DNA from: a virus
IMG/VR virus record: IMGVR_UViG_3300045988_144682
Length of the DNA: 64,000 bases
Direction: 5' to 3' (one strand)
Under the pieces are notes generated by a model. The model made no database searches and was not told the DNA's origin. It worked only from the letters and a program-made list of their open reading frames with translations. Below are positions 5,518 to 62,937 of this stretch, in pieces. A program made the position numbers and the translations under genes. The number at the start of each line of letters is the position of its first letter. The first letter of the stretch is position 1.

Positions 5518-6834
5518 ATGAAGTTAGGAAGAATTGTAACAAGTTTATTAGAGAATGATCTGTATAAATTCAGTATGGGACAGGCAATTTATCATCAGTT
5601 CTCAGACTACAAGACAACATGGAGTTTTAAATGCCGGAACAAAGACGTACATTTCACAAAAGAAATGCTGGAAGAAGTCAGAGAGCAGATTAAAGCATAT
5701 TGTGAGCTGCGGTTCACAGAAGACGAACTGAGTTATCTGGACGGTATCAAGTGGATTAAAGGATCTTACGTTGATTTCCTAAGACTCTGGAAACCACGAT
5801 ATGAAGATTTCACAATTACAGATGATGCAGAATGTGGACTTGTCATTGAAACTGCCGGTACATGGTTAAATACTTCTATGTACGAAATCCCGACACTTGC
5901 TATTGTAAATGAAGTGTATTTCAGAATGCAGTATGATTATGATGAGCTGTTAAGTAGCTTCAAGAAAAGACTGGATAACAAGTATGCAAATCTTCGCAAT
6001 GGTCATTGGTATTGTGGCACATTTTCAGAGTTTGGACTTCGCCGGAGATTATCTGCAGAAGCACAGGAACTTGTTGTTGAGAAGTTCTCACACCTGAATG
6101 ATACGGCGCATTGTGCATCAAGATTTATTGGCACTTCAAACGTATTTCTTGCGAAAAAATACGGAGTTACACCAGTTGGCACAATGGCACATGAATGGAT
6201 TATGTGTGTAGGACAGGGAAATCACAAGCACAATCCGGCATATTCTAATTGGTATGCACTTGACGCATGGGTTAAGGAATATGGAGTTTTGAACGGTACA
6301 GCACTGACAGATACAATTACAACCGACTGTTTCTTGGAAGATTTCCAGCTTACATTCGCAACATTGTTTTCTGGCGTTCGTCATGATTCGGGTGATCCGA
6401 TGGTGTGGGGCGAAAAGATGATTAAGCACTATGAAAAACTGGGGATTGATACGAAAACAAAAACATTGCTTTTCTCTGATTCACTGGATTTTGAGAGAGC
6501 AGATAAGATTTGCCGACATTTTTCAAAGAAAGCAAAAGTCGCATTCGGAATCGGCACATATTTGTCAAATGATACTTGCGTAAGTCCACTCAATATCGTT
6601 ATGAAGACTACAAAATGCAATGGTCAGGATGTGGCTAAAATTTCCGATGTTGAAGGAAAGGGAATGTGTAAGAATCCAGAGTATGTGGATTATTTGAGAA
6701 GATCAATTGGTTGGAGAATGGAGTCCTCAAAGAAAGCAGAAATGGACGAAAAACTGACTTCATATTTTAAAAGCAGTTTTACAGGAGAAAAGACACCTGT
6801 TTTAATACAGGGTAGTGGGAAAAGTAGAATGTAA
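5518..6834 (+). CDS. pncB: nicotinate phosphoribosyltransferase
   Basis: 438 aa, collinear with E. coli PncB as I recall it: LLENDLYKFSMGQA, FGLRRR, GTSNV, GTMAHEW, ALTDTITTD, GVRHDSGDP..WGEK...YEKLGID, LLFSD, FGIGT, NIVMK...NG..VAK.SD. Confidence 0.92.
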   Translation: MKLGRIVTSLLENDLYKFSMGQAIYHQFSDYKTTWSFKCRNKDVHFTKEMLEEVREQIKAYCELRFTEDELSYLDGIKWIKGSYVDFLRLWKPRYEDFTITDDAECGLVIETAGTWLNTSMYEIPTLAIVNEVYFRMQYDYDELLSSFKKRLDNKYANLRNGHWYCGTFSEFGLRRRLSAEAQELVVEKFSHLNDTAHCASRFIGTSNVFLAKKYGVTPVGTMAHEWIMCVGQGNHKHNPAYSNWYALDAWVKEYGVLNGTALTDTITTDCFLEDFQLTFATLFSGVRHDSGDPMVWGEKMIKHYEKLGIDTKTKTLLFSDSLDFERADKICRHFSKKAKVAFGIGTYLSNDTCVSPLNIVMKTTKCNGQDVAKISDVEGKGMCKNPEYVDYLRRSIGWRMESSKKAEMDEKLTSYFKSSFTGEKTPVLIQGSGKSRM

Positions 6835-7599: not shown

Positions 7600-8001
7600 A
7601 TGAGTAAAAACCACGCAAAAGAACTTTTTGGAAAATTTAATGAGAACACAGATGATTATGACAAGTACATAGACACTGTAAAATATTGCGAATCTATAGA
7701 GGATGAAATTAGATCGGAAGAAAATGTAAAATTTCATGCTAAACTTCGTAGATTAGAAGGTTTGTTAAGTTGTCCTAATTGGAGAGAAAGAAAAAATGAT
7801 ATGTTATCACTTATTCATAAGGTACAGGCAGAGATAGAGCTTAAATATGGGGATTGCATAGCAAAAGAAAGTAAAACAATGTGTTCACAAGTCGGAAAGC
7901 ATATTAAAGGAGAAGATAATGGGAAAAATAATATACGCAGAGAAAATAACTTGTCAGAAGTTTATAAATCTGTTCAAACTTCACGCAAAAACGAAAGATG
8001 A
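7600..8001 (+). CDS. hypothetical protein
   Basis: 133-aa ORF with GGAGA RBS. Its 3' end overlaps the Nudix gene by 83 nt. Confidence 0.5.
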   Translation: MSKNHAKELFGKFNENTDDYDKYIDTVKYCESIEDEIRSEENVKFHAKLRRLEGLLSCPNWRERKNDMLSLIHKVQAEIELKYGDCIAKESKTMCSQVGKHIKGEDNGKNNIRRENNLSEVYKSVQTSRKNER

Positions 8002-8491
8002 AAAAGATATTGAATATATGGTTGCTTCAAGAGCCAAAGAAGTTGATGAACTAAAAGCGATCAATCCAAGTAAACAAGTTGATGCTGTTGCAATTCGTGC
8101 AACAACAGAAGAAGGAAAACTGGTACTTATCAGACAGTACAGATATGCAATCGGTGGTTATATCTATGAACTTCCGGCTGGACTTGTTGACGATGGAGAA
8201 AGTGTTTGTGATGCAGCAATAAGAGAAATGCATGAGGAAACAGGGTTGACACTTGAAATCACAGATTTGCCGATTGGAAATAAGGGTGGTTATTCAAGTG
8301 CCGGAATGACTGACGAAACTTGCACACTTGTAGTAGGCAAGGTAACTGGCGAAATTTCCGATAAATATAAAGAAGCGTCAGAAGAAATTGAAGTATTGCT
8401 TGTAGATAAAAAAGAAGCAGCACGTATCTTAAAAGAAGAAAACGTATGTATCAGATTAGCTCTTGTGCTTATGATGTTTATACATGAGTAG
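7919..8491 (+). CDS. Nudix hydrolase, ADP-ribose pyrophosphatase-like
   Basis: 190 aa with AAAGGAGA RBS. Nudix box GLVDDGESVCDAAIREMHEETGL. The preceding IRQYRY...ELPAG is typical of ADPRases. Confidence 0.8.
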   Translation: MGKIIYAEKITCQKFINLFKLHAKTKDEKDIEYMVASRAKEVDELKAINPSKQVDAVAIRATTEEGKLVLIRQYRYAIGGYIYELPAGLVDDGESVCDAAIREMHEETGLTLEITDLPIGNKGGYSSAGMTDETCTLVVGKVTGEISDKYKEASEEIEVLLVDKKEAARILKEENVCIRLALVLMMFIHE

Positions 8492-8500
8492 GAGGATATT

Positions 8501-8851
8501 ATGAATCTATATGATGGTTGCGAGTCAAATAAAGAAATCATTTATGGTTTTACTTCATTTGATTTTTACGATAAATTAGAAAAACGACAAAATGAAATTT
8601 TATCACAAGGAAAGAAAGTTGTGTTTGTGGAATCAAATACAAGTATTCATTCAGGTGCAAGAGTTGTTATATATTCTGATAAAATTCCCGAAATAATGCA
8701 GAACTATAAACATAGATACGTCAAAATCAATGGTAAGTGGACAAGGAACAGTCTTCTTGGATATTGTGATTGCTGCGGAATGTATACAGAACTTGTATGC
8801 TTAAGTAACAAAGGAAGAACATGTGAAAATTGTTCAGACTGGGATTTCTAA
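8501..8851 (+). CDS. hypothetical Cys-rich protein
   Basis: 116 aa with GGAGG RBS. C-terminal CDCCG...C...CENC cluster. Confidence 0.6.
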   Translation: MNLYDGCESNKEIIYGFTSFDFYDKLEKRQNEILSQGKKVVFVESNTSIHSGARVVIYSDKIPEIMQNYKHRYVKINGKWTRNSLLGYCDCCGMYTELVCLSNKGRTCENCSDWDF

Positions 8852-11991: not shown

Positions 11992-12370
11992 GGGGATGAA
12001 ATTGGATTCGATTGGGCATGGAACGGATATAATTCGCAGGAGCGACTACCTAATAGTCAAACTTAAAATAAACGCTGAAGAATTAAGAATGGTAGCGTAA
12101 GCTATATCAGTCTGTGAGATTGGGATATTGGTAACAGGCTGTATTAAGAGCTAATATCCAAAAGGAGAATGTTTTCTCTGTAAGTTGACTCTTCAAAAAA
12201 CAACAGAGTGGTGGACGTTGTAAGAAACCTTTACAAACCCAAAAACGGAGTAGTTACCTGATTCACTGGGGCAACCGTTTTCAAACAAAATGCCCGAATG
12301 AATGGTATTGCGTAAAAGATTATATAATTAGTACGTGTTTAAGACGGGGGTTCGACTCCCCCCATCTCCA
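11992..12370 (+). ncRNA. ssrA: tmRNA (SsrA)-like RNA
   Basis: 5' GGGGATGAAATTGGATTCGA. 3' GGGGGTTCGACTCCCCC-CATCTCC-A. The acceptor GGGGATG/CATCTCC includes a G3:U70 pair. No CCA is encoded. The tag frame is uncertain; the best candidate ends ...NAEELRMVA-TAA at 12098-12100. Confidence 0.75.
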
Positions 12371-12496
12371 CTGTAATAGCTGGTTATTGTTGTTACGGCT
12401 ATTACTAAAAACCTTTCTATCTAAATGGGGCGATGTAAAAATCGTCCCAAATAAAAAAATCACACAACTTTAAACAAACAATAATAAAGAAAATGC

Positions 12497-18061: not shown

Positions 18062-18074
18062 GAGAGTGCATGAA

Positions 18075-18521
18075 ATGAACAAGCAAGAATTAGTAAGAAA
18101 TGAAATGGTCAAAGCCATGAAAGAAAAAGACAAACCTAAAAAGGAAACGCTTTCTCTCTTACTGGCAGCATTAAAGAATGCGGAAATTGACAAAATGGGA
18201 ATTTTATCTGAATCTGAAGAAGATGCAGTAGTCCAGAAGGAAATCAAACAGACAAAAGAAACCCTGGATCTTGCACCGGCAGATAGAACAGATATCATTC
18301 AGGAGTGTAAATATCGTATTGAAGTGCTGAGTCAGTTCGCACCGAAGATGATGACAGAAGAAGAGATTGAGGCTATAATCGCTGGTGTGCTGAGTGATTT
18401 AGGTATCGAGAATCCGACCAAAAAAGAAAAAGGTAAAATCATGAAGACACTTATGCCGATGGTCAAGGGCAAAGCTGACGGGAAATTGGTAAATCAGATT
18501 TTGGAAAAGAAACTGGCATAA
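18075..18521 (+). CDS. GatB/YqeY-domain protein
   Basis: ATG at 18075 (the track uses GTG at 18066). AMKEKDK..L..LLAALKNAEIDK...VVQKEIKQ..E........R.D...E....I.VL..FAPKMM.EEEI...I...L...G...K.KGKIMK.LMP.VKGKADGKLVNQ. Confidence 0.8.
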   Translation: MNKQELVRNEMVKAMKEKDKPKKETLSLLLAALKNAEIDKMGILSESEEDAVVQKEIKQTKETLDLAPADRTDIIQECKYRIEVLSQFAPKMMTEEEIEAIIAGVLSDLGIENPTKKEKGKIMKTLMPMVKGKADGKLVNQILEKKLA

Positions 18522-19127: not shown

Positions 19128-19667
19128 ATGAAAATAGTAAATAATTGCATTGATTGCGTATATGATTTTCAAATGAGAGAATCATGTCGTGATAAACTTG
19201 TACATGCAATGCCAACAGATTTAATAGCAAGAATGACTTCTATTTTGGTTATCAAACCGTATGGGGATAAATTCTATGTTGTAAAATCAAGATACGAGAG
19301 GGAACTTTTTTATAACAAATTACTTAAAGAAGATTTTAAGGTAATTTCCAATTCGGATTTTGAAGGTTGTAAGGATTGGATTGAATTTGCGGAAAGAGTA
19401 AGAGAGCTAATCAATCCAGGAGAATGTGTCATATATAAGATGAACAACAAGAAGTTCGATGAAAATTATAATCTGGTGCGGAATACAAATTACAGTACAA
19501 ATATCTATTCGTTGTATAAGAGGGTTATGAAACGTGATCCGAGAGCCATTGATGAAATCGAATCTCTTGAAGAAGCAAAAGAAATTATAGGTATGATGCT
19601 TGGAAACCACTATATGCATAATACGGCATATGAAATGCTCAAAATTTTTGGAGGGAAACAACGATGA
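19128..19667 (+). CDS. hypothetical protein
   Basis: ATG at 19128 after TAGGAG. 179 aa. Confidence 0.55.
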   Translation: MKIVNNCIDCVYDFQMRESCRDKLVHAMPTDLIARMTSILVIKPYGDKFYVVKSRYERELFYNKLLKEDFKVISNSDFEGCKDWIEFAERVRELINPGECVIYKMNNKKFDENYNLVRNTNYSTNIYSLYKRVMKRDPRAIDEIESLEEAKEIIGMMLGNHYMHNTAYEMLKIFGGKQR

Positions 19668-20422
19668 TTTATATTACGGGAGATATTCACGGTAGCCCGG
19701 AACGCCTGGGTATGCATTCCTTTTATGAACAGAAGGAAATGACAAGAGATGATATCGTGATTATTTGCGGAGATTTTGGTATGGTCTGGGAAAAAAGTGG
19801 AGAATCTGCATCTGAGCAGTATTGGCTGAAATGGCTAGAAGATAAGCCGTTTACAACCGTGTTCGTGTGCGGAAACCATGAAAATTTTGACAGACTATAT
19901 CAGTACCCAGTGAAAGAGTGGCATGGTGGTAAAGTTCATGAAATTCGCCCACATGTATTACATTTAATGCGTGGAGAAATTTTTGATATTGAAGGATTGA
20001 AATTTTTCGCATTTGGTGGGGCAAGCAGCCATGATATCAGAGATGGTATTATTGATCCGGCAGAAGATGAAAACTGGCGTGAGATAGCTAAAGAATGGTA
20101 TAAAGCCGGGAAGATGTATCGCATTAAAGGGATTTCATGGTGGGAACAGGAGCTTCCGACACAAAAGGAAATGGATAATGGTATTAAGAATCTTGAACGT
20201 GTTGGAAATAAAGTAGATTACATTATCACTCATTCGCCATCTGCAAGTGTGATTGCACTGTTAGGGCATGGATTGTATGAACAAGATGTACTTACAAGAT
20301 ACTTGGAAGATATTCGATCTAAGGTAGAGTATAAGAAACATTTCTGCGGTCATATGCATGTAGATAAGGCAGTTAATGAAAAAGACATTATTCTGTATGA
20401 GCAGATCATCCGGCTTGCTTGA
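19664..20422 (+). CDS. calcineurin-like metallophosphoesterase
   Basis: 252 aa. ITGDIHG, ICGDFG, GNHENF, and later GHMH. Confidence 0.82.
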   Translation: MIYITGDIHGSPERLGMHSFYEQKEMTRDDIVIICGDFGMVWEKSGESASEQYWLKWLEDKPFTTVFVCGNHENFDRLYQYPVKEWHGGKVHEIRPHVLHLMRGEIFDIEGLKFFAFGGASSHDIRDGIIDPAEDENWREIAKEWYKAGKMYRIKGISWWEQELPTQKEMDNGIKNLERVGNKVDYIITHSPSASVIALLGHGLYEQDVLTRYLEDIRSKVEYKKHFCGHMHVDKAVNEKDIILYEQIIRLA

Positions 20423-20446
20423 CAAATTTGTAATCTATGCTATAAT
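20419..20446 (+). promoter_or_regulatory. sigA-type promoter (first of tandem pair)
   Basis: TTGACA at 20419-20424, 16-nt spacer, TGcTATAAT at 20438-20446. Confidence 0.6.
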
Positions 20447-20467
20447 ATTAACATGCAAAAATAAAGG

Positions 20468-20496
20468 TTGACAGTCAACAAATAATATGATATCTT
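20468..20496 (+). promoter_or_regulatory. sigA-type promoter (second of tandem pair)
   Basis: TTGACA at 20468-20473, 17-nt spacer, TGaTATCTT at 20488-20496. Confidence 0.6.
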
Positions 20497-20512
20497 ATAG
20501 GAGAAGCAAATA

Positions 20513-20797
20513 GTGAATATAGTATTGATTATTATTTTGTTCGGCTTTATATATGGAAGCAGCTATTTCAGATTTCATGAACCATACGGATTGAATAATA
20601 CATACAATGCTTTAGGTTATTATATGTTATCAGTAAAATGGTGGAATATTGAATTCAACTGGTGTACATACAAAAACAAATGGCAAGTTGATATTAAGCT
20701 GAGATTTATAAGAAAATGGAAGCCGAGAAGATATAAAGAGGTATATGTGATATTTAATAGTGCAGGAGTAAGAACCTACACTTTAAATATATATTAA
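20513..20797 (+). CDS. hypothetical small membrane protein
   Basis: GTG start after AGGAGA. 94 aa with a hydrophobic N-terminus IVLIIILFGFIYG. Confidence 0.5.
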   Translation: MNIVLIIILFGFIYGSSYFRFHEPYGLNNTYNALGYYMLSVKWWNIEFNWCTYKNKWQVDIKLRFIRKWKPRRYKEVYVIFNSAGVRTYTLNIY

Positions 20798-20824: not shown

Positions 20825-23458
20825 ATGAGAACAGGATTAACAAGCTCTCAGGTAACAAAGAACAGAGAAAAATATGGTTCAAATAAGTTACCAGAAAAGA
20901 AACTAAAAACAGGATTTCAGTTTTTCATGGAAACATTTGAAGATAGACTGAACCAGATTCTTTTAGCAATGATGATTGTGTTTACGGTTTTAGCCGTATT
21001 CGGACAAGGATCGTATTCAGAGCCGATAGGTGTTGCGGTAGTATTACTTGCAATTGCATTTATTGGAATGAATACAGGATTGAAAAGCCAGAAAAGTGCA
21101 AAAGAATTGAAAGACAGAACTTCGATTCATTATTGTAATGTAATCCGTGATGGAAAGGTTGAGCATATCAACTCAAATGATTTGGTTGTTGGCGATCTTG
21201 TAATTATTCAGTCCGGCGAAGCAATTTATGCAGACGGATATTTAGTAGAAGGAAATGTAAAAGTTGATAACTCCGTTTTAAATGGGGAATCAGATCCTTG
21301 TAAAAAGACACCGTGGGAAAATGAAGATTCATCCCCAATTATTATAGGTGGGAAACGACATGCAAATTCAAATGATTATGTAGATTCGTATTCATTATTT
21401 GCTGGCACAACAGTAACAGACGGAGAAGGAAAGATGATCGTTACAAACGTAGGTGTTAATACTGTAAACGGTCAGACAATTTCCACGATTGATGAAATCG
21501 AAGAAACAAAGACATCACTGGAAATTCAGTTAGATGATCTTGCCGGGCAGATTAGTAAATTCGGATATATTGGAGCAGCTATCATCGTTGTTGCACTGAT
21601 TGTAACAAATATCATTCAGCTTGGTGGTATTGCTGAATACCTCAATATCGGGTGGATTGGTATTTTGAAAAATGTCCTTACAGTAGCAGTTACGGCACTT
21701 ACAATTATTGTTGCAGCAGTTCCAGAAGGACTTCCATTGATTATTAACCTTATTACAGCACAGAATGCGAAAGTAATGATTAAACATAACGTGCTTGCGA
21801 AACATACAAATAAGATCCCGGAAGCCGGAAACATTCAGTTGCTTTGCACAGATAAGACAGGAACTCTTACGGTAGGTAAACTTGTACCAGTTGAAAATGT
21901 GATGGGCGATAAAAATGAAGTACCGAAAGATTCAGTAATTGAAAATATGTTTAAGTTAAACGTAGCGTTAAATAGTAGTGCTATGTATGATGAAAATAAA
22001 AATATTGTTGGTGGTAACGCTACAGAACGTGCATTACTTACAATGATTTCAGATAGAGAGTATAAAGACTTTACGGATTCTGTAGAAGTCACAAACAGAA
22101 AAATTTTCAATAGTGCAAATAAGTTTAGTGCTATTGAAACGAGTGGAAAAGATGGAAAGATTACCTATTATAAAGGTGCGCCTGAAAAATTGATTGATGC
22201 AGCAGTTTCTTATGAAACAACAGATGGAATCAAACCAATTGAAAAGGAAAAATTAAAAGAAATCGTTAAATCATATGCTACAAAAGCTATGAGGGTAATC
22301 GCAACTGGATATAGTAAATCCGTATTACCAGAGGAAGGATTCCCGGATGATTTAGTTCTTGTTTCTTTGGTTGCTATTCGTGATGATGTTCGTCCAGAAG
22401 TACCGGAAGCAGTTGCAAAAATGCATGAAGCCGGTGTACAGGTAATGATGGTAACAGGAGATGTCATTGATACTGCTAAAGCTATTGCTAAAGATGCAGG
22501 ACTTATTACAAGTGATTCTGATATCGCAATGTCAGCTATTGATTTTGATGCCTTATCAGACGAAGAAGCAAAAGAGAAACTTCCGTATATCAAAGTAATT
22601 GCAAGAGCTACGCCAAATACGAAACTGAGAATTGTAAGACTTGCACAGGAGATTGGTCTTTGCGTTGGAATGACAGGAGATGGAACAAATGATGCACCAG
22701 CTTTAAAGGCTGCAGATGTAGGATTTTCAATGGGATCTGGTACGGATGTTTGCAAAGAAGCAGGAGATATCATTATTACAGATGATAACTTTGTATCTAT
22801 TACAGATGCCGTTCTATTAGGAAGAACATTCATGCACAATGTTATGAAGTTCCTGAAATTCCAGCTACCTATCAATGTAGGGTTAGTAATTTTGAGTATT
22901 TTATATCCGATTATTATGGCAGTAGAAGCTGTGGCAGCAGTACAGATTCTTGTAATCAATATTGTAATGGACTCTCTTAATTCTCTTTCGTTTGGTGGAG
23001 AACCAGCAAAAGATGAGTATATGAAAGAAAAGCCTATTCCAAAAGGATCGAAACTTCTTTCAAGAGAAACTATTGGACAGATTGCAGTATCAGTTGTAGC
23101 ATTTATCGGAATTTTTGGAATTACATTACTGCCACCAATTCAGAAAGTATTTGGAAATGATGAAACCGTTTATGCGACAGTAAGGTTTGCGCTTCTTGTT
23201 ATGATGGCAACATTTAATGGATTTAACATCAGAACCGATGGATTCAATTTATTTAAAGGAATTGGAAAGAATAAGCTCTTTGTTGAGATTGCGGTAGCAA
23301 TTTTTGTACTGACATTTGTTCTTGCTCAGTTTGGTGGAGCAATTATGGGATGCGCAGCACTGACAGCTACACAGTGGGGCATTACAGTTGGGCTTGCATT
23401 CATGATTATCCCAATTGATCTGGTAAGAAAAGCCGTTATCAGAGTAAAAAGAAAGTAG
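20825..23458 (+). CDS. P-type (P2, Ca2+-type) cation-transporting ATPase
   Basis: 877 aa. Phosphorylation site CTDKTGTLT, actuator-like NGES, M4 VPEGLPLI, MVTGD, hinge TGDGTNDAPALK, and multiple TM helices. Confidence 0.92.
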   Translation: MRTGLTSSQVTKNREKYGSNKLPEKKLKTGFQFFMETFEDRLNQILLAMMIVFTVLAVFGQGSYSEPIGVAVVLLAIAFIGMNTGLKSQKSAKELKDRTSIHYCNVIRDGKVEHINSNDLVVGDLVIIQSGEAIYADGYLVEGNVKVDNSVLNGESDPCKKTPWENEDSSPIIIGGKRHANSNDYVDSYSLFAGTTVTDGEGKMIVTNVGVNTVNGQTISTIDEIEETKTSLEIQLDDLAGQISKFGYIGAAIIVVALIVTNIIQLGGIAEYLNIGWIGILKNVLTVAVTALTIIVAAVPEGLPLIINLITAQNAKVMIKHNVLAKHTNKIPEAGNIQLLCTDKTGTLTVGKLVPVENVMGDKNEVPKDSVIENMFKLNVALNSSAMYDENKNIVGGNATERALLTMISDREYKDFTDSVEVTNRKIFNSANKFSAIETSGKDGKITYYKGAPEKLIDAAVSYETTDGIKPIEKEKLKEIVKSYATKAMRVIATGYSKSVLPEEGFPDDLVLVSLVAIRDDVRPEVPEAVAKMHEAGVQVMMVTGDVIDTAKAIAKDAGLITSDSDIAMSAIDFDALSDEEAKEKLPYIKVIARATPNTKLRIVRLAQEIGLCVGMTGDGTNDAPALKAADVGFSMGSGTDVCKEAGDIIITDDNFVSITDAVLLGRTFMHNVMKFLKFQLPINVGLVILSILYPIIMAVEAVAAVQILVINIVMDSLNSLSFGGEPAKDEYMKEKPIPKGSKLLSRETIGQIAVSVVAFIGIFGITLLPPIQKVFGNDETVYATVRFALLVMMATFNGFNIRTDGFNLFKGIGKNKLFVEIAVAIFVLTFVLAQFGGAIMGCAALTATQWGITVGLAFMIIPIDLVRKAVIRVKRK

Positions 23459-23466
23459 GTAATAAT

Positions 23467-23697
23467 ATGGTCATGAGAGATAGAGAATACAAAACGGTTG
23501 AAAATATTGTATTGATTTGTTATACAGTTGGATTAGTCCTTACATGCGTAACAAAATTTATACCATTTATATTTTTAACGGTTGCAGCATATCCTATTTC
23601 ACTTGCTATATTAAACAATAATAAATGTGGGAACAGAACAAAAAACTGTTCCCAGAAAACAAAAAAGTTCAATAAGAAGGAGAGAACATTATGGTAA
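23467..23697 (+). CDS. hypothetical small membrane protein
   Basis: 76 aa with two hydrophobic helices and a basic tail. Confidence 0.5.
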
Positions 23698-24257
23698 GTT
23701 TGGTAAAAGGACAGAAAGTTGATCTTACAAAAGGAAACGCAGGGTTAAAGAAAATTCTTGTCGGTTTAGGATGGGACACAAATAAGTACGATGGAGATGA
23801 TTTCGATTTAGACGCATCTGCATTTCTGCTTGATAAAAATGGAAAAGTGACAACTGATAAAGACTTTGTATTCTTCAACAATCTGGTACATCCGAGTGGA
23901 GCAGTAAAACATATGGGAGATAACCTTACTGGATCTGGCGATGGAGATGATGAACAGATTATTGTTGACCTGGCAAAGATCCCGGAAAATATCGAAAAGA
24001 TTGCATTTACAGTAACAATTTATGAAGCAGACAGTAGAATGCAGAATTTCGGTATGGTGTCTAATGCGTATATTCGTATGTCAAACGAGGAAACAGGCGA
24101 AGAAATGATTAGATACGATCTTGGAGAAGATTATTCTACAGAAACATCTATGGTTCTTGGAGAGTTGTATCGTCATAATGGCGAGTGGAAATTCAATGCG
24201 ATTGGTGCTGGTTATGCTGGCGGTTTAACTGCACTTTGCAATGGATATGGATTATAA
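23691..24257 (+). CDS. TerD-family protein (paralog 1)
   Basis: 188 aa. [39 protein letters not shown]. Confidence 0.92.
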
Positions 24258-24272
24258 AGGGAGGAAACGAAA

Positions 24273-24884
24273 ATGGCAGTTAGTTTAACAAAAGGTGAAA
24301 AGGTAAATCTTTCAAAAGTGGTGGAGAAACTGGCGAATGTAACCGTTGGTCTTGGTTGGGATGCAGCGGAATACGGAGATAGTATTGATTGTGATTCTTC
24401 TGTATTTGTACTTAAAAATGTAGTTGGAAAGTCTGGAATGTTCGGCTTATTTAAGAAAGAAGAGAAAGCAAGATTAGTAAATGATGAGGATATCATTTAC
24501 TATGGTCACAAAAAACATTCAAATGGTTGTATCAAACATCATGGAGATAATTTGGTTGGTGGCAGTGTAGGTGATGATGAGCAGATTTCAATAAATTTGA
24601 AAGAAATGCCGGAAGATGTTACTAGACTGGCTGTTGTAATCAATATCTATAATTGTAGAAATAGAGGGCAACATTTTGGCATGATTAAAAACTGTTTTGC
24701 ACGTATTGTAGATGATGCGACCAAAGAAGAAATCTGCCGATATAATTTATCAAATGACTATAACGGTTGTACAGCACTGATTGTGGCTGAGTTCTACAGA
24801 GAAGATGGAGAATGGCATTTTGAAGCTGTTGGAAAAGGCACACATGATGGCAGTATTTCAGAACTTGCAAGAAGATACAAATAG
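24273..24884 (+). CDS. TerD-family protein (paralog 2, divergent with insert)
   Basis: 203 aa. GLGWD, CDSSVFVL, GDNLVGGSVGDDEQI, WHFEAVGKG. Confidence 0.88.
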   Translation: MAVSLTKGEKVNLSKVVEKLANVTVGLGWDAAEYGDSIDCDSSVFVLKNVVGKSGMFGLFKKEEKARLVNDEDIIYYGHKKHSNGCIKHHGDNLVGGSVGDDEQISINLKEMPEDVTRLAVVINIYNCRNRGQHFGMIKNCFARIVDDATKEEICRYNLSNDYNGCTALIVAEFYREDGEWHFEAVGKGTHDGSISELARRYK

Positions 24885-24900
24885 AGTGGAGGAAAAGTAG

Positions 24901-25479
24901 ATGTCAGTAAGTTTGAATAAAGGCGATAGAGTCGAACTTTCAAAGGACAGCAGAGTGAATGCAGTTTCCGTGTGTTTAGGTTGGGACACAGCTAAATACG
25001 ATGATGATGGAGATTTTGATTTGGATGCGTCTGCATTTGTTATCGGTAGAAATGGCATGACAAGAAGAGATGAGGATTTCATTTTTTACAATAATCTGCA
25101 GCATCCTAGTGGTGGTATCACTCACAGTGGAGATAACCTTACCGGCGGTGGAGATGGGGATGATGAAGTAATCAAAGTCGTTCTTGATAAACTTCCAAAA
25201 TATGCCGAAAAGGTTGTGTTCTGTGTAACAATTCACGAAGCAGAGAGAAGAATGCAGAACTTTGGAATGGTCGAAAACTCTTTTATTAGGGTGGTTGATG
25301 ACAATACTGGTTGTGAGATTACACGTTACGACTTAAAAGAGAAATTCGGAGATTCTACTGCAATTATCGCAGGTGAAATCTACAGAGATGGATCTGGTTG
25401 GAAATTCCATGCTGTAGGGGATGGATTCAATGGTGGACTTTTTGACTTATGTGAAAAATTTGGAATTGAGGTAAAGTAG
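24901..25479 (+). CDS. TerD-family protein (paralog 3)
   Basis: 192 aa. LGWD, DLDASAFVI, GDNLTGGGDGDDEVI, WKFHAVGDGF. Confidence 0.92.
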   Translation: MSVSLNKGDRVELSKDSRVNAVSVCLGWDTAKYDDDGDFDLDASAFVIGRNGMTRRDEDFIFYNNLQHPSGGITHSGDNLTGGGDGDDEVIKVVLDKLPKYAEKVVFCVTIHEAERRMQNFGMVENSFIRVVDDNTGCEITRYDLKEKFGDSTAIIAGEIYRDGSGWKFHAVGDGFNGGLFDLCEKFGIEVK

Positions 25480-25480
25480 A

Positions 25481-26248
25481 ATGACAGTAGGTACAAGTAA
25501 TTTAGTGATATTCGTTATTGCTATTATCCTGGTTGTTGGAATTATTGCACTGATTTTGAATAAGACATTTTTCAAACAGCTTGTGATTAAATACAGAGGA
25601 AGAACAGAAGAGATTGCAAGACAAGATGCAGCGACACCACAAGGTGCAACGGATTATTTCAATAATGCAATCAGAGAAAAAGAAACTTTATATGGGGATG
25701 CAGAACGTTCATATGTTGAGATTGCTGGAAAATTAGACGAGTCCGAAAAGGAACAGTATCATTTGAAGAAAGAACTCATGAAGATTGATAAATCTATCAA
25801 TGATTGTCTGGACGCAAATGACGAAAACGGTGCTAGACAGTATGCAATGAAGAAAATCACAGTTCAGCAGAAAATTGATACTCTGAAAGATACAATCGAA
25901 GAGTTTAAGAAAGCGAAAGATCAGCAGGATGAAATCAGAAAAGCGGTGAAACAGGAACTTGACGAACTCAAAGAAGAGAAAGAAAGAACCGTTTATCAGA
26001 TGGAAGCAGATCAGCAGATTATTCAGCTTCATGAAGGTATGAATGCAAGTGCAAGTTCAAGTGAAAGCGATCACATGTTGGAAAGAGTGCGTGAAGGTGC
26101 TAAAAAGACCAGAGAACGTGCAGCCGGAGCGCAGATTGCCTATGATACAAGTGCAAAAGCACAGGATCGTAGACTGGAAGCCCAGGCAAGAAACAGAGAG
26201 GCTGATGAACTTCTGGCAGAAATGAAAAGAAAAAGAGGTAACAACTAA
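25481..26248 (+). CDS. membrane-anchored coiled-coil protein, PspA/IM30-like (weak)
   Basis: 255 aa with an N-terminal TM helix followed by a long heptad-rich region. Similarity to PspA is loose (..NGARQYAMKKI.VQQKIDTLK..). Confidence 0.35.
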   Translation: MTVGTSNLVIFVIAIILVVGIIALILNKTFFKQLVIKYRGRTEEIARQDAATPQGATDYFNNAIREKETLYGDAERSYVEIAGKLDESEKEQYHLKKELMKIDKSINDCLDANDENGARQYAMKKITVQQKIDTLKDTIEEFKKAKDQQDEIRKAVKQELDELKEEKERTVYQMEADQQIIQLHEGMNASASSSESDHMLERVREGAKKTRERAAGAQIAYDTSAKAQDRRLEAQARNREADELLAEMKRKRGNN

Positions 26249-26337
26249 TGATTGTACTTAATATTGGAGTTTTCTGCTTGTGTATAGTTGTTCCGTTTGT
26301 AACTGGCTACTGCGTAGGACGCAAGAAAAGAAAGTAG
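26248..26337 (+). CDS. 29-aa hydrophobic peptide
   Basis: ATG overlaps the upstream TAA (TAATG). Sequence MIVLNIGVFCLCIVVPFVTGYCVGRKKRK. Below the track cutoff. Confidence 0.35.
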   Translation: MIVLNIGVFCLCIVVPFVTGYCVGRKKRK

Positions 26338-26343
26338 TATGAA

Positions 26344-26377
26344 GTAGTAGTTGGTGAAATATCCAACTACTATTTTT
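26344..26377 (+). terminator. Rho-independent terminator
   Basis: GTAGTAGTTGG-TGAAATAT-CCAACTACTA(T) stem followed by TTTTT. Confidence 0.7.
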
Positions 26378-26393
26378 AAAATGAGGTAAATAA

Positions 26394-26873
26394 ATGAGAG
26401 TAATTGATCCGAATTTGGACGGAATCACTCATATCAATGTGTATAGTGGAAGTAGGACAGAGCTTGGTAGAATGCTGAGTAATTTCTGTCTGGAAGAGAT
26501 ATATACAAAAGATGGGCGGTTTATGTCAGTTGAGGCATATTGGTTTTGGCTAGGTATTTCGCCGGATTGTAAAGAAAGAGAATGTATGCGTGATTTATTC
26601 GGTTATCAGGCAAAGGCAAAAGGTACATATTTGAGAGAAGTATATCCCGGAGAGCAGATAGAAGATTTTCAGGACAGAATCATTCGGGCGATATGGTACA
26701 AAGCCAAAAGACATACAGACTTATTTTTGCCGGAATATGAAAATCTGCCACTGAAACATTACTATGTCAACAGAAACGGATCAGTGAGAGATGTGTATGG
26801 CAAATACTGGTGGATGATAGAAGCTGAAGAAAAAATGAAGAAATACATTTATGAGGTTAAGAAACAGCTATGA
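26394..26873 (+). CDS. NADAR (YbiA/DUF1768)-like protein
   Basis: 159 aa. INVYSGSRTELGRMLSNFCLEEIYTKDGRFMSVEAYWFW aligns by eye with E. coli YbiA INFYSTSDDYGDFSNFAAWPIKVDGKTWPTSEHYFQ. The C-terminal half is less clear. Confidence 0.45.
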   Translation: MRVIDPNLDGITHINVYSGSRTELGRMLSNFCLEEIYTKDGRFMSVEAYWFWLGISPDCKERECMRDLFGYQAKAKGTYLREVYPGEQIEDFQDRIIRAIWYKAKRHTDLFLPEYENLPLKHYYVNRNGSVRDVYGKYWWMIEAEEKMKKYIYEVKKQL

Positions 26874-27694
26874 AGAAATTGAAAGTAGTTGCGTTATTAG
26901 TAGTTATGATGTGCGGATTGGTCGGGTGTAAGGAAGACGTAGAAGTACATACAGAATATGTCAAAGCACAGCCGTTACAATTATATACAGAGGAAGTCGT
27001 GCAAGAAACCGTAGAACAAGCAAAAGTAAGTGCTGAGATTGCTATAGAGGAAGTGGAGAAGGAATTTTCGCCATATTATGTAGCGGTCAGTTCTTTGAAT
27101 ATCAGACAAGCACCAGATACAAATTCTTCATTGGTTGGCAGCTTGGTATTTGGCGATTATATAAATGCGTATGTAGATGGAGAATGGGCAGAACTTGATA
27201 ACGGTACATATGTAAGTGCAGAGTATTTGACAAGTGAATTGCTATATACAGCTTATGCAGCACCATATACAAGCGGAATGAAAAGCTATATGCCGTATAG
27301 TGTTAGAGATAGAAGTATTTTCGTACAATCAAGTAATCAGTACAAATTACAAGAATTATGCAACACTGGGAATTACGGCATCCGGCAATATAAGGGCAGA
27401 TATTGTGTGGCAATTGGTAGTTATTTTGGAACTACAATCGGACAGTATTTTGACTTGATTTTAGAGAATGGCGTTTCAATACCTTGTATCATGGCAGATC
27501 AAAAAGCAGATTGCCATACAGATGACAGTAATATTATTACGGTTGCCAATGGTTGCATGACAGAATTTGTAGTTGATTTTGACAATCTTAATAGTGATGC
27601 AAAACGAATGGGGGATATATCCTACTGTTCCGAAGATTGGAAATCAAGAGTTGTAGAAGTAAGAGTGTATGATATGAATGCACTTTCTGAATAG
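26870..27694 (+). CDS. lipoprotein with SH3b domain (possible cell-wall-binding/hydrolase)
   Basis: 274 aa. Signal plus lipobox LVGC. SH3b-like LNIRQAPDTNSSLVGSLVFGDYINAYVDGEWAEL..GTYVSAEYL. Confidence 0.55.
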   Translation: MKKLKVVALLVVMMCGLVGCKEDVEVHTEYVKAQPLQLYTEEVVQETVEQAKVSAEIAIEEVEKEFSPYYVAVSSLNIRQAPDTNSSLVGSLVFGDYINAYVDGEWAELDNGTYVSAEYLTSELLYTAYAAPYTSGMKSYMPYSVRDRSIFVQSSNQYKLQELCNTGNYGIRQYKGRYCVAIGSYFGTTIGQYFDLILENGVSIPCIMADQKADCHTDDSNIITVANGCMTEFVVDFDNLNSDAKRMGDISYCSEDWKSRVVEVRVYDMNALSE

Positions 27695-37862: not shown

Positions 37863-37936
37863 GGATCATTAGCTCAGTTGGTTAGAGCATCCGGCTCATA
37901 ACCGGGCGGTCACTGGTTCGAGTCCAGTATGATCCA
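37863..37936 (+). tRNA. tRNA with CAT anticodon (Met, or Ile2 if lysidinylated)
   Basis: Canonical cloverleaf GGATCAT-TA-GCTC-AGTTGGTTA-GAGC-A-TCCGG-CTCATAA-CCGGG-CGGTC-ACTGG-TTCGAGT-CCAGT-ATGATCC-A. No CCA is encoded. Confidence 0.9.
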
Positions 37937-38557: not shown

Positions 38558-38651
38558 CTTATTCTAATTTTTATATACTTACAGCATAATCAAACAATAA
38601 TAAAGTATGTAGGAATTATGAAATATAATTCAAAATTAGGAGGAATTGAAC

Positions 38652-40205
38652 ATGGGTTTCATGAATTCAATGAAAAGTACGTTGAATGAAGATTTCAACG
38701 AAAGCTACACAGAAAACGGCGCACTTGGATATAGAACAACAGGTAAACACTTGCTTGATTTGAATTTCAAGGTCGCATCTCTGAGAAAAGCTGATGCAGA
38801 AACAATCATTTCTGGATTCGATAAAGCGTTTTCAGAAGACCATATTCACGCACTCAAATGGTTATTCTATTTGCGTGATGCGAGAGAAGGTCTGGGGGAA
38901 CGTAGATCATTCAGAATCATCATGTCTCATTTGGCAAATGTTGAGCCGGAAATCAGTAAAGTGCTGATTGGTTTAATCGCTGAATACGGACGTAGTGATG
39001 ATCTTCTCTCCCTGTTAGGTACAGAGTGTGAAAAAGACACACTGGAACTTATCAAAAATCAGCTAATGAAAGATTTAGAAGCAAAAAAAGCGAACAAACC
39101 AGTATCATTGTTTGCTAAGTGGTTGCCAAGTTGTAATGCAACTTCCCACAAAACAAGAGAAAATGCTGCAGTAATTCGTAAGTATTTGGGATTCACAGAA
39201 AGACAATATCGTAAGATTCTTTCGGAACTGAGAGAGTATATTGATGTTGTTGAAAGAAAGATGTCTGCTAAGAAATGGGGCGAAATCAATTACGAAGCCG
39301 TTCCGTCAAAAGCAAATCTTATTTACAACAATGCATTCCTCAAAAACGATGAGGAACGCAGACGAGAGTATCTGGATAAGCTGGAAAAGGGAGAGGCGAA
39401 AATCAACTCTTCTACAAACTTCCCACATGATATCGTACATAGTTATCTGAAAGGTCGTAGCTATTACAGATCCAATATAAAAGAGAACAAAGCTCTGGAA
39501 GCATTATGGAAAGCACTTCCTGATACAGTACAGGGTGATGGAAATACTCTTGTTGTCAGAGATGGTTCTGGAAGTATGATGTGTAGTGTTGATCCAAACA
39601 GCAGCATTACTGCACTGGAAGTCGCAACAGCACTTGCTATTTACTTCTCTGAGAGATGTTCTGGCGAATTCAAAGATAACTTTATCACATTCAGTTCAAG
39701 ACCTGAGTTGATTGATCTTTCAGCGTGTAGTTCACTGGCAGAAAAAATCAGAAGATGTTATGCAGAAAATGACTGTTCTAACACAGACATTGAAAAAACA
39801 TTTGATCTTATTCTGCAGACAGCTATCAATACTAATATGAAACAGGAAGACATGCCAAAGAATATCCTGATTATCAGTGATATGGAATTTGACCAGGCAA
39901 CCTATTCATATGGATGGGGAGGTAGCGCAAGCACAGTAAATGAAACACTGTTCAAGACAATTGGCAGAAAATTTGAGAAAGCTGGATATCAGCTTCCGAG
40001 ACTTGTGTTCTGGAATGTAAACTCACGTACCGGCACAATCCCTGTCAAGGAAAACGCTTTGGGTGTTGCTCTTGTAAGTGGATTCTCAGTCAATGTTGCG
40101 AAAATGGTATTAAGCGGAGAACTTGATCCGTATAAATGTCTGATTGAGCAGCTTGACACAGAGAGATATGCACCGATTGAGGCAGCAATCAAAGATTTAA
40201 AATAA
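38652..40205 (+). CDS. vWA-domain protein of the DUF2828 / TROVE (Ro60)-like architecture
   Basis: ATG at 38652 after AGGAGGA. A helical N-terminal about 300 aa beginning ..YTENGALGY.TTGK.LLDLNF. C-terminal vWA with MIDAS VVRDGSGSM and ISDMEFD. The family assignment is from memory. Confidence 0.6.
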   Translation: MGFMNSMKSTLNEDFNESYTENGALGYRTTGKHLLDLNFKVASLRKADAETIISGFDKAFSEDHIHALKWLFYLRDAREGLGERRSFRIIMSHLANVEPEISKVLIGLIAEYGRSDDLLSLLGTECEKDTLELIKNQLMKDLEAKKANKPVSLFAKWLPSCNATSHKTRENAAVIRKYLGFTERQYRKILSELREYIDVVERKMSAKKWGEINYEAVPSKANLIYNNAFLKNDEERRREYLDKLEKGEAKINSSTNFPHDIVHSYLKGRSYYRSNIKENKALEALWKALPDTVQGDGNTLVVRDGSGSMMCSVDPNSSITALEVATALAIYFSERCSGEFKDNFITFSSRPELIDLSACSSLAEKIRRCYAENDCSNTDIEKTFDLILQTAINTNMKQEDMPKNILIISDMEFDQATYSYGWGGSASTVNETLFKTIGRKFEKAGYQLPRLVFWNVNSRTGTIPVKENALGVALVSGFSVNVAKMVLSGELDPYKCLIEQLDTERYAPIEAAIKDLK

Positions 40206-40422: not shown

Positions 40423-41517
40423 ATGAGAAAGTTAGCAACAATTCGTGAAATCGCAGAAATCAAGCCGATTCCTGATGCTGACAGAATCGAAGTAGCAAGA
40501 ATTGATGGTTGGGAAGTTGTCGTGTCAAAGAAAGACAATTTTCATGTTGGCGATAGAGTGGTATATGTCGAGATTGACAGTAAGATGCCGGAAACGCCAG
40601 AGTATGAATTCTTGAAATCAAGAAAGTATGTTGTAAAGACTATCGTAATGAGAGGACAGGTTTCACAAGGATTAGTGATGCCGTTATCCATTCTTCCGGT
40701 AGGTGAATACAAACTTGGTCAGGATGTTACGGATGTCTTAGGAATCATTAAGTATGATCCACAGCTTGAAGAAGAAAATGCGGTTTTCGAGGAAAACAGA
40801 AAGAAAACCAGGAATCCAGTTGTGAAATTTTTAATGAGATATGCATGGTTCAGAAAAATCTATCTCAAGAAGAATACGCACACAGAGTTTCCAAACTTTA
40901 TTAAAAAGACAGATGAAGAAAGAATTCAGAATATGCCTGAGTTATACGAAAGGCTGAAGAATGAACAAACCAATCTGATAGTGACAGAAAAAGTTGACGG
41001 ATGTTCCGGCACTTATTTTTTACGCAAAATTCCGAGAAAATTCGGAAAAGCGAAGTACGAATTCGGAGTTTGCAGCAGAAATAGGAGATTGCCACAGCCG
41101 GATAACAGCTACTATTGGAAAATCGCCAACAAATACAAAATTCGCAGCGTTCTTGAAAAATTGATAGACGATGAGGATTATATAGTATTACAAGGCGAAA
41201 TTACTGGTGCAAAAATCCAGGGAAACAAATATCATGAGAAAGATTGCCAGTTATGGGCATTCAACCTCATAGCCCCCTCAAAGAAATATAATACCATTGA
41301 GATGCAAGACATTCTCATTAAGCATGGTATTCATACAGTACCAATTGTTGAGATTGGTTACAATGTAAAAGGTGATATACAAGATATTGTAAAGTATGTG
41401 AAAGGCAAGTCACAAATTGTAGATAGGGAAAGAGAAGGATGTGTTTTTAGAAATACTGATAAGAATATCAGTTTCAAATGTATTAACCCAAACTTCTTAA
41501 TCAAGAATAATGAGTAG
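40423..41517 (+). CDS. ATP-dependent RNA ligase (Rnl5/DraRnl-like, N-terminal OB-type extension)
   Basis: 364 aa. The N-terminus MRKLATIREI.EIKPIPDADRIEVA.IDGW.VV is typical of this ligase clade. Nucleotidyl-lysine motif TEKVDG. Confidence 0.72.
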   Translation: MRKLATIREIAEIKPIPDADRIEVARIDGWEVVVSKKDNFHVGDRVVYVEIDSKMPETPEYEFLKSRKYVVKTIVMRGQVSQGLVMPLSILPVGEYKLGQDVTDVLGIIKYDPQLEEENAVFEENRKKTRNPVVKFLMRYAWFRKIYLKKNTHTEFPNFIKKTDEERIQNMPELYERLKNEQTNLIVTEKVDGCSGTYFLRKIPRKFGKAKYEFGVCSRNRRLPQPDNSYYWKIANKYKIRSVLEKLIDDEDYIVLQGEITGAKIQGNKYHEKDCQLWAFNLIAPSKKYNTIEMQDILIKHGIHTVPIVEIGYNVKGDIQDIVKYVKGKSQIVDREREGCVFRNTDKNISFKCINPNFLIKNNE

Positions 41518-62909: not shown

Positions 62910-62937
62910 TTGACATTTACAAGAATGATGATATAAT
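62910..62937 (+). promoter_or_regulatory. sigA-type promoter
   Basis: TTGACA at 62910-62915, 16-nt spacer, TGaTATAAT at 62929-62937. Confidence 0.6.

Follow-up and report, generated by a model that had tools for sequence, protein, structure and literature searches.

A predicted Ca2+ pump, TerD proteins and a PspA-like protein share one operon in a large gut phage

Organization of the operon

The DNA analyzed here is a stretch of 64,000 nucleotides (nt), hereafter called the window, from a large gut phage (IMG/VR virus record IMGVR_UViG_3300045988_144682). It harbors a cassette of genes encoding a P-type ATPase, three TerD proteins, a coiled-coil protein resembling PspA, and three small proteins with predicted transmembrane (TM) segments. 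The following features were assigned to the cassette (coordinates are those of the window; aa, amino acids; ORF, open reading frame):

20419..20446, + strand: promoter P1, a perfect TTGACA-16-TATAAT with an extended -10 TG (12 of 12 matches to the sigma-70 consensus)
20468..20496, + strand: promoter P2, TTGACA-17-TATCTT with TG (10 of 12 matches)
20513..20797, + strand: 94-aa ORF, first gene of the unit, with a GTG start, an AGGAGA ribosome-binding site and an N-terminal TM helix
20825..23458, + strand: P-type ATPase (pump), 877 aa, predicted PMCA-type (P2B), with a single ion site II and an LNGES loop
23467..23697, + strand: 76-aa two-TM hairpin protein (two TM segments by hydropathy)
23691..24257, + strand: TerD1 (Pfam TerD, E = 5e-87), with DLDAS and the second Ca2+-site motif intact
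24273..24884, + strand: TerD2 (Pfam TerD, E = 2e-62), a diverged paralogue with an insertion and the motif GDNLVGGSVGDDE
24901..25479, + strand: TerD3 (Pfam TerD, E = 5e-73), with the intact motifs DLDAS and GDNLTGGGDGDDE
25481..26248, + strand: PspA/Vipp1(IM30)-like protein, 255 aa, with a TM helix at the N-terminus and a long helical hairpin after it
26248..26337, + strand: 29-aa peptide with one TM segment and a basic C-terminus; start and preceding stop codon overlap by 1 nt
26341..26377, + strand: intrinsic terminator, an AT-rich 14-bp hairpin (26341-26376) overlapping a T5 run

The locus is a single, tightly packed operon, with the promoters at 20419 and 20468 at one end and the terminator at ca. 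26377 at the other. An earlier note, made from the letters of this DNA, had described a run of ORFs "without gaps" from the pump to the 29-aa peptide (20825-26337). All of these ORFs were recovered at those positions, and the spacers between successive genes, from the pump through the 29-aa peptide (8, -7, 15, 16, 1, and -1 nt), bear the description out. The start of the unit, which that note had placed at the pump (20825), had to be moved: the conserved 94-aa ORF at 20513-20797 separates the promoters from the pump, and the unit therefore starts upstream of 20825, at ca. 20419-20513.

Both of the tandem promoters that had been proposed at 20419 and 20468 held up, each featuring the TG extension. 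Perfect matches to the sigma-70 consensus are rare in this DNA (two in 64 kb, with 0.1 expected); the other one, also TTGACA-16-TATAAT, lies at 62910-62937 (+). P1 was found in close relatives only. P2 is the sole promoter kept in divergent relatives, its TTGACA and TGATAT being invariant in the loci L016 and L018, the downstream ORF of which is 44% identical (individual relatives are cited by locus number throughout).

A strong terminator had been proposed at 26344-26377. It was missed by a consensus terminator scan because its stem is poor in G+C, and direct folding was used instead; the hairpin at 26341-26376 folds with a ΔG of -17.8 kcal/mol (z = -5.5), and none of 200 shuffled sequences folded as well.

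A metallophosphoesterase gene (19664-20422) precedes the unit. It gave two tblastn matches in L013 and L035, and the doubled match could represent a duplication or a split gene.

The pump

Classification of the pump was carried out with the NCBIfam hidden Markov models. The PMCA-type model, TIGR01517, scored 518.4 bits against a cutoff of 507.05, whereas all other P-type models fell far below their cutoffs: PMR1 (396 bits, cutoff 798), SERCA (324), H+ (275), Mg2+ (247), heavy-metal (206 or less), and also the K+-type model. The earlier assignment to the Ca2+-type P2 pumps was thus sharpened to the PMCA type, and not to the Mg2+, K+ or heavy-metal pumps. TIGR01517 was also the best match for the divergent phage relatives and for the bacterial pumps linked to Ter genes described below, some of which scored slightly under the cutoff.

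The best solved relatives of the pump are Arabidopsis ACA8, Listeria LMCA1, and human PMCA1/2. The homology with these P2B pumps is full-length (E = 1e-104 to 1e-108) and includes the ten-TM architecture, and the phage pump shares with them DKTGT, PEGLP, the Asn/Asp pair of the sixth TM helix (M6), and the absence of the site-I glutamate from M5. Like LMCA1, it is short (877 aa) and has no calmodulin-binding extension. It differs from all three in having an NGES rather than a TGES loop, in being encoded by a phage, and in its setting among TerD and PspA-like partners.

The motifs that had been noticed by eye were all present, namely PEGLP (aa 300-304), DKTGTLT (aa 343-349), and GDGTNDAPALK (aa 618-628); DKTGT and GDGxNDxP proved invariant in pumps from 76 phage-locus and 62 bacterial loci. 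The ligands of site II are kept: the M4 Glu of PEGLP, and the Asn and Asp of M6 (INIVMD, compared to VNLIMD in ACA8 and INLVND in LMCA1). M5 reads FQLPINVGL, with a Leu at the position of SERCA Glu771, the site-I glutamate; Ala occupies this position in ACA8 and LMCA1. By these alignments, the protein is a predicted PMCA-type Ca2+-ATPase in which site II is intact and site I is missing, and one Ca2+ per cycle would therefore be expected.

The A-domain loop reads LNGES (aa 152-156; window 21278-21292), i.e. it carries Asn in place of the Thr of canonical TGES, with the Glu retained. This loop does not argue against membership in the P-type superfamily. The pattern LNGE(S/A)xxC is common to nearly all of the phage pumps and to most of the clostridial pumps linked to Ter genes, and it may be a signature of a Ter-associated subgroup.

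TerD proteins

All three TerD proteins contain full-length PF02342 domains, with scores of 290.6 (TerD1), 210.6 (TerD2), and 245.0 bits (TerD3) against a cutoff of 25.3. TerD1 aligned with the solved TerD of Klebsiella (2kxt) with an E-value of 6e-70. The Klebsiella protein (2kxt/2kxv) is a known Ca2+ binder.

The earlier note held that each of the three genes keeps the Ca2+-binding motif. In the alignment, this was so for TerD1 and TerD3, which retain the acidic motifs of Klebsiella TerD; it was not so for TerD2, the motif of which (GDNLVGGSVGDDE) is partly degenerate, with Gly replaced by Ser and one Asp lost through replacement by Val. The D-x-D element was invariant in all 11 aligned TerD sequences. 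In the second cassette type described below (type B), there is a single TerD, which has an 8-aa insertion and a motif that reads GEHYDE.

TerD1 is 68-74% identical to TerD proteins of gut Clostridia. TerD2 is nearest to the pump-proximal TerD of bacterial arrays (41-46% identity).

The PspA-like protein and the small membrane proteins

The 255-aa coiled-coil protein matched the PspA/IM30 profile PF04012 with a score of 20.3 bits, which is under the gathering score of 33.9; residues 58-252 were aligned with positions 26-218 of the 220 in the profile. When 41 diverse members of its family (down to 16% identity) were searched, 23 matched PF04012 at E ≤ 0.01, the best with an E of 1.6e-9; other families recurred no more than twice.

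A model calculated with AlphaFold2 had an overall predicted local distance difference test score (pLDDT) of 78.8, with values above 90 over residues 61-160, and features a helical hairpin (53-111/115-222). In a Foldseek search of the Protein Data Bank (PDB), ranks 1 through 13 were all Vipp1 or PspA (best E, 2.7e-4; TM-score, 0.33-0.64), although coiled coils draw spurious matches in such searches; a search of a viral structure library was too noisy and was not used. Residues 1-36 make up a TM segment of strong hydrophobicity (mean hydropathy, 3.66), after which come basic residues, and there is no N-terminal amphipathic helix (H0). This arrangement points to permanent anchoring in the membrane, with the coiled coil presumably in the cytoplasm. 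The single N-terminal TM segment, the structural matches and the profile matches together put the "membrane-anchored" protein with "loose PspA/IM30 resemblance" of the earlier note on firmer ground.

A profile of this family retrieved 232 clusters (at 50% identity) among 1.84 billion representative proteins. The length is 240-260 aa in almost all of them, TM segment included, and they come mostly from phage or metagenome contigs. Comparison of the family profile to PDB sequences gave insignificant matches only (Vipp1/PspA, E of ca. 0.3; liver fatty-acid-binding protein, E of 0.12). From the profiles and the model, the protein is best placed in a small, distant, TM-anchored branch of the PspA/IM30 superfamily. 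The predicted long helical hairpin is shared with the PspA/Vipp1/ESCRT-III superfamily; a true TM helix in place of the N-terminal amphipathic helix sets the phage protein apart from PspA and Vipp1, and none of the partners of PspA systems (PspBC, PspF, LiaIH) was seen with it. The alternative that the coiled-coil protein is a diverged TelA was rejected (hhalign probability, 0.2%).

Bacillus phage G gp247 (L004, locus 7878-8618) is a weak homologue (22% identity). Its neighbors are ABC-transporter and OmpA/MotB genes, with no TerD nearby, and the family is thus not restricted to Ter cassettes.

The 94-aa ORF is 43-99% identical in type-A relatives (the cassette type of the window; see below) and had no match in Pfam, PHROG or PADLOC. 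The 76-aa protein (45-100% identity in type-A and type-B cassettes) likewise had no match in the family searches (Pfam, NCBIfam, PHROG, PADLOC); it is a candidate for a small, pump-associated membrane subunit. The 29-aa peptide is 46-100% identical among relatives, including the divergent locus L043. Hydropathy agreed with the two TM segments and the one hydrophobic segment that had been ascribed to the latter two products.

In the cluster directly downstream of the cassette, a 274-aa protein (26870-27694, +) features a signal peptide, the lipobox MKKLKVVALLVVMMCGLVGC, and a bacterial SH3 (SH3b) domain. It is a predicted phage lipoprotein that is co-conserved with the cassette in close relatives, and it may have a role at the envelope or in exclusion.

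Conservation of the cassette and exchange of modules

Searches of IMG/VR yielded two partly overlapping sets of loci: 45 that encode the pump (49-99% identity) and 35 that encode the PspA-like protein. The contigs range from 5 to 222 kb. The pump, TerD and the PspA-like protein occurred together in every one of these phage loci that had adequate flanks, and the same linkage was found in more divergent contigs from Logan and NCBI.

Two arrangements were distinguished. In type A, the order is the 94-aa ORF, pump, two-TM protein, an optional TerF-type vWA gene, three TerD genes, the PspA-like gene, and the 29-aa peptide. In type B, the order is pump, two-TM protein, vWA-TerF, one diverged TerD, and the PspA-like gene. 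The vWA gene (PF10138, vWA-TerF-like; E of ca. 1e-59 to 1e-61) occurs in many relatives and is absent from the window. Relatives that are otherwise 98-100% identical differ in whether it lies between the two-TM gene and TerD1 (window 23697/23691; present at L037 8588-9361 and L012 12702-13559). Where the vWA gene is present, the two-TM protein is ca. 48-57% identical, and the vWA/two-TM segment looks like a recent replacement.

In the type-B loci, pumps 85-91% identical to that of the window lie beside TerD/PspA modules that are merely 31-35% identical. The reverse was found in L064, L065, and L069, in which TerD/PspA modules with 62-81% identity accompany pumps with merely 45-48% identity. 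These comparisons indicate that modules were exchanged in both directions and that the linkage of pump, TerD and PspA-like genes persisted.

The main genes are under purifying selection, with ratios of nonsynonymous to synonymous substitution rates (dN/dS) of 0.05-0.18: ca. 0.07 for the pump, ca. 0.1 for TerD1, 0.15-0.18 for TerD2, 0.07-0.08 for TerD3, and 0.05-0.07 for the PspA-like protein. The small ORFs are more weakly constrained (0.15-0.6), with ratios of 0.2-0.39 for the 94-aa ORF, 0.2-0.6 for the 76-aa protein, and 0.15 (vs. L016) for the 29-aa peptide. Between the window and its close relative L009, dS is 0.83 for the pump, 0.66 for TerD1, 0.04 for TerD2 and TerD3, and 0.33 for the PspA-like gene; such unevenness along the cassette indicates recombination breakpoints within the operon.

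Kinship with clostridial Ter operons

Among cellular proteins, the 80 that are closest to TerD1 (68-74% identity) come almost entirely from gut Clostridia, mainly Lachnospiraceae. About 68 of these 80 loci (L088-L167) have a full-length PMCA-type pump, 33-45% identical to that of the phage, directly beside the TerD array. A Ca2+ pump next to TerD is thus the ordinary layout of clostridial Ter operons and not an innovation of the phage. The usual clostridial order is YceG-TelA-TerDx2-3-pump, with PRTase_2/TRSP, StiP/PELOTA, and C-C lyase genes upstream; a representative operon has the pump but neither TerC nor PspA. The bacterial arrays consist of two TerD1-like copies and a pump-proximal, TerD2-like copy, so that the TerD paralogue types match those of the phage. 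The clostridial pumps also share LNGE(S/A)xxC, PEGLP, and the N..D pair of M6 with the phage pump, and a TerF-type vWA gene occurs occasionally.

The phage cassette departs from this layout in that the pump comes first, followed by TerD, and in that TelA, YceG, PRTase, StiP, the lyase, and HAD are missing. Pfam and NCBIfam scans of the window cassette found no TerC, TelA, TerB, PRTase, StiP or YceG. Conversely, the genes for the PspA-like, two-TM, 94-aa and 29-aa proteins were found in the phage cassette and in none of the bacterial loci; a PspA-like homologue was absent from all 80 TerD loci. Without TelA and the enzymes, and with the PspA-like and small membrane proteins, the phage cassette is by its gene content a shortened, rearranged relative of the Ter stress operon of gut Clostridia, i.e. 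a derivative and not a complete member.

A neighbor-joining tree of the pumps (midpoint-rooted, without outgroup or bootstrap) placed the phage pumps in one clade with two deep branches, apart from the sampled bacterial pumps. This topology fits a single, old acquisition and later exchange among phages. Two other histories were considered. Several independent captures of the pump were unsupported by the sampled tree, and the idea that the three TerD genes were taken en bloc from a host in recent times was rejected (identities were 41-74% and synonymous sites were saturated).

A literature search on the linkage of TerD to P-type ATPases returned nothing relevant; the Ter paper of Anantharaman, Iyer and Aravind (2012) was outside its reach.

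Relation to published phage pumps and Ter modules

Chen et al. (Sci Adv 2026; PMC12880540) reported Ca2+-translocating P-type ATPases in over 1500 genomes of Jug (jumbo gut) phages and in 85 other gut phages. The latter comprise 81 other huge phages and four smaller ones, some with pumps nearest to those of Bacillota. By these numbers, the view of the earlier note that such a pump is unusual phage cargo is outdated. The Jug phages (360-402 kb, 27-30% G+C) have predicted Bacteroides/Phocaeicola hosts and a pump nearest to those of Bacteroidaceae. They carry a small gene (77-91 aa) upstream of the pump and co-transcribed with it, and three terD genes, one of which adjoins a pspA-like gene; the pump and terD/pspA-like regions are highly transcribed in the gut (PMC12880540).

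Compared by published description, the window differs from the Jug phages in that pump, TerD and PspA-like genes stand in one operon, in its G+C content of ca. 35%, and in its TerD being nearest to those of Lachnospiraceae. The 94-aa ORF resembles the small upstream gene of the Jug phages in position and size. The phage of the window is most likely one of the "other" phages that were counted, not analyzed, in that study. The single conserved pump/TerD/PspA-like operon (with or without vWA) and its kinship with clostridial Ter operons are new, being absent from the account in PMC12880540.

Virus-encoded, functional P-type Ca2+ pumps, as predicted here, are also exemplified by the chlorella virus Ca2+-ATPases M535L and C785L (ref 38 of PMC12880540). 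Likened by description only, these come from giant viruses of eukaryotes, and TerD or PspA partners have not been reported for them.

Ter modules containing TerD, TerC, TerF, and TelA have been described in jumbo phages and were suggested to counter superinfecting phages (Iyer et al. 2021; PMC7824862). In Acinetobacter phage vB_AbaM_ME3, vWA-TerF, a membrane transporter, and TerD stand in the same relative order as in the type-B and vWA-containing cassettes, and both modules are abbreviated, host-derived, and located in large phages. The ME3 module differs in having a TerC-family (DUF475/TerC) membrane component, in keeping PRTase and HAD, and in having no P-type pump. Judging from gene order, the pump appears to occupy the slot that is held elsewhere by TerC. 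A PspA/IM30 protein of ME3 was considered as an independent link between TerD and PspA and was discarded; no PspA was present among the ten ter neighbors scanned.

The phage, its relatives, and its host

Besides the cassette, the window carries genes for a helicase, a DnaB-type helicase, a 1120-aa DNA polymerase, an NAD-dependent ligase, an RNA ligase, a Ro-like RNA-binding protein, and a nicotinamide phosphoribosyltransferase (NAMPT). All of its large ORFs are on the + strand, and its G+C content is 32-38% (mean, ca. 35%). Bacterial contamination or mis-assembly was ruled out by the phage genes on both sides of the cassette and by dozens of syntenic viral contigs. Several relatives are human-gut huge phages of 212-222 kb (complete or high-quality according to CheckV; ca. 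32.5% G+C) that appear in the genome table of Chen et al. without a species-cluster ID (PMC12880540). The host is probably a member of the Clostridia/Bacillota, given that the nearest TerD relatives are from Lachnospiraceae.

A near-identity search of the cassette DNA against 50,697 GenBank phage records found no match. In a tblastn search of the GenBank phage collection, all matches to the pump were under 60% identity (best listed, 40%). They were set aside as evidence on phage pumps; most were unannotated, multi-contig records named "Listeria phage LM" or "Enterococcus phage Efs" that resemble host contamination. The INPHARED entries OR846xxx-OR849xxx ("Listeria phage LM 4-11-1", "LM 4-14-1", "Enterococcus phage Efs 1-1-1") comprise dozens of contigs per name, with assorted P-type ATPases at 25-32% identity, and look like contamination of phage submissions with host genomes. 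Two further records appear to be misfiled. L002 (GenBank MT836648.1, "UNVERIFIED: Bacteriophage sp.", 15.4 kb) is a bacterial fragment with MetG, MoaC, TatD, and MarR; it also holds an entire Ter operon, after which a P-type ATPase begins. L085, binned as a contig of a Clostridiales metagenome-assembled genome, is a phage fragment with an integrase, a ligase, DnaB, and a PolIII alpha subunit.

Other features of the window were recorded in passing:

5518-6834, + strand: the NAMPT-like gene (phrog_448)
11992-12373, + strand: tmRNA (ARAGORN tag AEELRMVA*; Rfam RF00023, 80.2 bits, gathering score 47)
18066-18521, + strand: YqeY-like protein (a YqeY gene is also found close to the cassette in the divergent phage contig L085)
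37187-37304 and 38422-38557, + strand: over-long Rfam tRNA matches (118 and 136 nt; 57.8 and 53.8 bits), not called by ARAGORN

The over-long matches flank a tRNA-Met (37863-37936) just upstream of the Ro-like gene (38646-40205) and the RNA ligase gene (40423-41517). Located near a Ro60-like protein, they might represent either tRNAs with introns or Y-RNA-like RNAs that include tRNA-like modules.

Discussion

The explanation that best accommodates these results overall, and one that we hold with middling confidence, is that the cassette is a Ter-derived phage operon that would provide Ca2+-linked protection of the membrane. Host RNA polymerase probably transcribes it early from the sigma-70-type promoters. 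The pump would expel one Ca2+ from the cytoplasm for each ATP, the TerD proteins would bind cytoplasmic Ca2+ as buffers or sensors, and the PspA-like protein would polymerize on the inner face of the membrane, stabilizing or sealing it. The net effect would be low cytoplasmic Ca2+ and an intact, energized membrane through a long infection cycle, and the infected cell would be guarded against perforation of its membrane by the injection of a second phage, by pore-forming bacteriocins, or by host suicide effectors.

Several points weigh against this explanation. The PspA-like protein scores below the gathering threshold, and its 232-cluster family profile does not merge with canonical PspA. TerD2 is short of one acidic ligand, and the single TerD of type B is strongly diverged at the motif. 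The Thr-to-Asn change in the A-domain loop of the pump is a departure from canonical TGES, and the ion specificity of the pump rests on homology. Early expression is read from promoter consensus, and the host is assigned indirectly, via the nearest TerD relatives. The pump tree has neither outgroup nor bootstrap, and the phage clade is not nested within the sampled bacterial pumps. Finally, the pump and the terD/pspA-like genes of the Jug phages are separate transcription units, so their coupling is not universal (PMC12880540).

Four other explanations were weighed. The selected function might be superinfection exclusion, or competition between phages, with the altered membrane and ion conditions defeating DNA injection by a second phage; we regard this as possible but doubtful. 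SH3b lipoproteins are a class often used for exclusion, and one with a lipobox is predicted directly downstream (26870-27694). The host sigma-70-type promoters fit early expression, exclusion has been proposed for the TerD/TerC/TerF/TelA modules of jumbo phages (PMC7824862), and classical ter operons confer phage inhibition and colicin resistance (PMC8123226, PMC7824862). However, a scan of seven cassette proteins (the 29-aa peptide being outside it) against the PADLOC-DB v2 defense models gave no match at E ≤ 0.01, and this idea largely overlaps membrane protection, from which it differs in what was selected and not in molecular mechanism. It is unlikely, in our estimation, that the cassette serves general Ca2+ housekeeping, i.e. 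that its genes are auxiliary metabolic genes lowering cytoplasmic Ca2+ to suit phage replication and packaging, with TerD and the PspA-like protein as passengers or independent of the pump. This hypothesis was put forward by Chen et al. and agrees with the separate operons of the Jug phages (PMC12880540), and no other large gene of the cassette is as conserved as that of the pump. It is opposed by the linkage in all adequately covered loci despite swaps of modules in both directions, by the adjacency of pump and TerD in ca. 68 of 80 bacterial loci as well, and by purifying selection on TerD and the PspA-like protein that is as strong as that on the pump.

The two remaining explanations concern the substrate and the timing of lysis. 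TerC proteins have been implicated in Mn2+ export, and single-site P2 pumps of the PMR1/SPCA type carry both Mn2+ and Ca2+. The yceF gene of Bacillus encodes a TerC protein. That the pump carries Mn2+, alone or with Ca2+, is nevertheless quite improbable. In its favor, ME3 has vWA-TerF, a TerC-family protein, and TerD where the present phages have vWA-TerF, the pump, and TerD; a pump but no TerC is found in the representative clostridial Ter operon; and the PMR1-type model was the second best in NCBIfam. In addition, the TerC-family protein Alx is reported to be a Mn2+ exporter (PMC10197570). On the other side, the PMR1-type score of 396 bits is far from its cutoff of 798, while the PMCA-type model passes its own, and the closest solved relatives of the pump are Ca2+ pumps. 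The TerD of Klebsiella (2kxt/2kxv) is also a demonstrated Ca2+ binder. Least probable of all is a control of lysis timing in which the PspA-like protein and the small TM peptides would delay a holin-type collapse of the membrane until the end of the long cycle. The unit does combine three small membrane proteins with a membrane-stabilizing fold, and PspA-type proteins uphold the proton-motive force under membrane stress (PMC11237479), but neither a holin nor an endolysin was found within or next to the unit (a weak, sub-threshold match of the SH3 protein to an amidase PHROG was the only hit), and the conserved pairing of pump and TerD from bacterial Ter operons would be left unexplained.

A more specific form of Ca2+-linked membrane protection can be drawn by analogy with the ESCRT-III-mediated repair of the eukaryotic plasma membrane, and we consider it rather unlikely as it stands: the cassette might be a Ca2+-triggered membrane-repair kit. 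TerD would sense Ca2+ leaking through a lesion, much as calmodulin or ALG-2 does, on behalf of a pump without a regulatory tail of its own. It would then recruit or activate the anchored PspA/ESCRT-III-like polymer to seal the lesion, and the pump would reset cytoplasmic Ca2+. A phage so equipped would survive pore-forming abortive-infection effectors, bacteriocins, and injection by rival phages.

The native function of TerD and of Ter operons has been unclear for decades, and tellurite resistance is widely regarded as a side effect. If the repair-kit analogy were true, that native function would be Ca2+-coupled protection of membrane integrity, and the phage cassette would be its minimal working core. 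The adjacency of TerD and pump in Clostridia, together with the linked trio in phages, makes the question of TerD function easier to test, and a minimal unit of six to nine genes is now defined for questions of Ca2+ handling and membrane protection. A small, TM-anchored branch of the PspA superfamily has also been identified, so far mainly in phage and metagenomic contigs. These results extend the 2025-26 report of phage Ca2+ pumps in that the pump here appears to belong to a Ter-derived envelope-stress module and not to be a stand-alone auxiliary gene.

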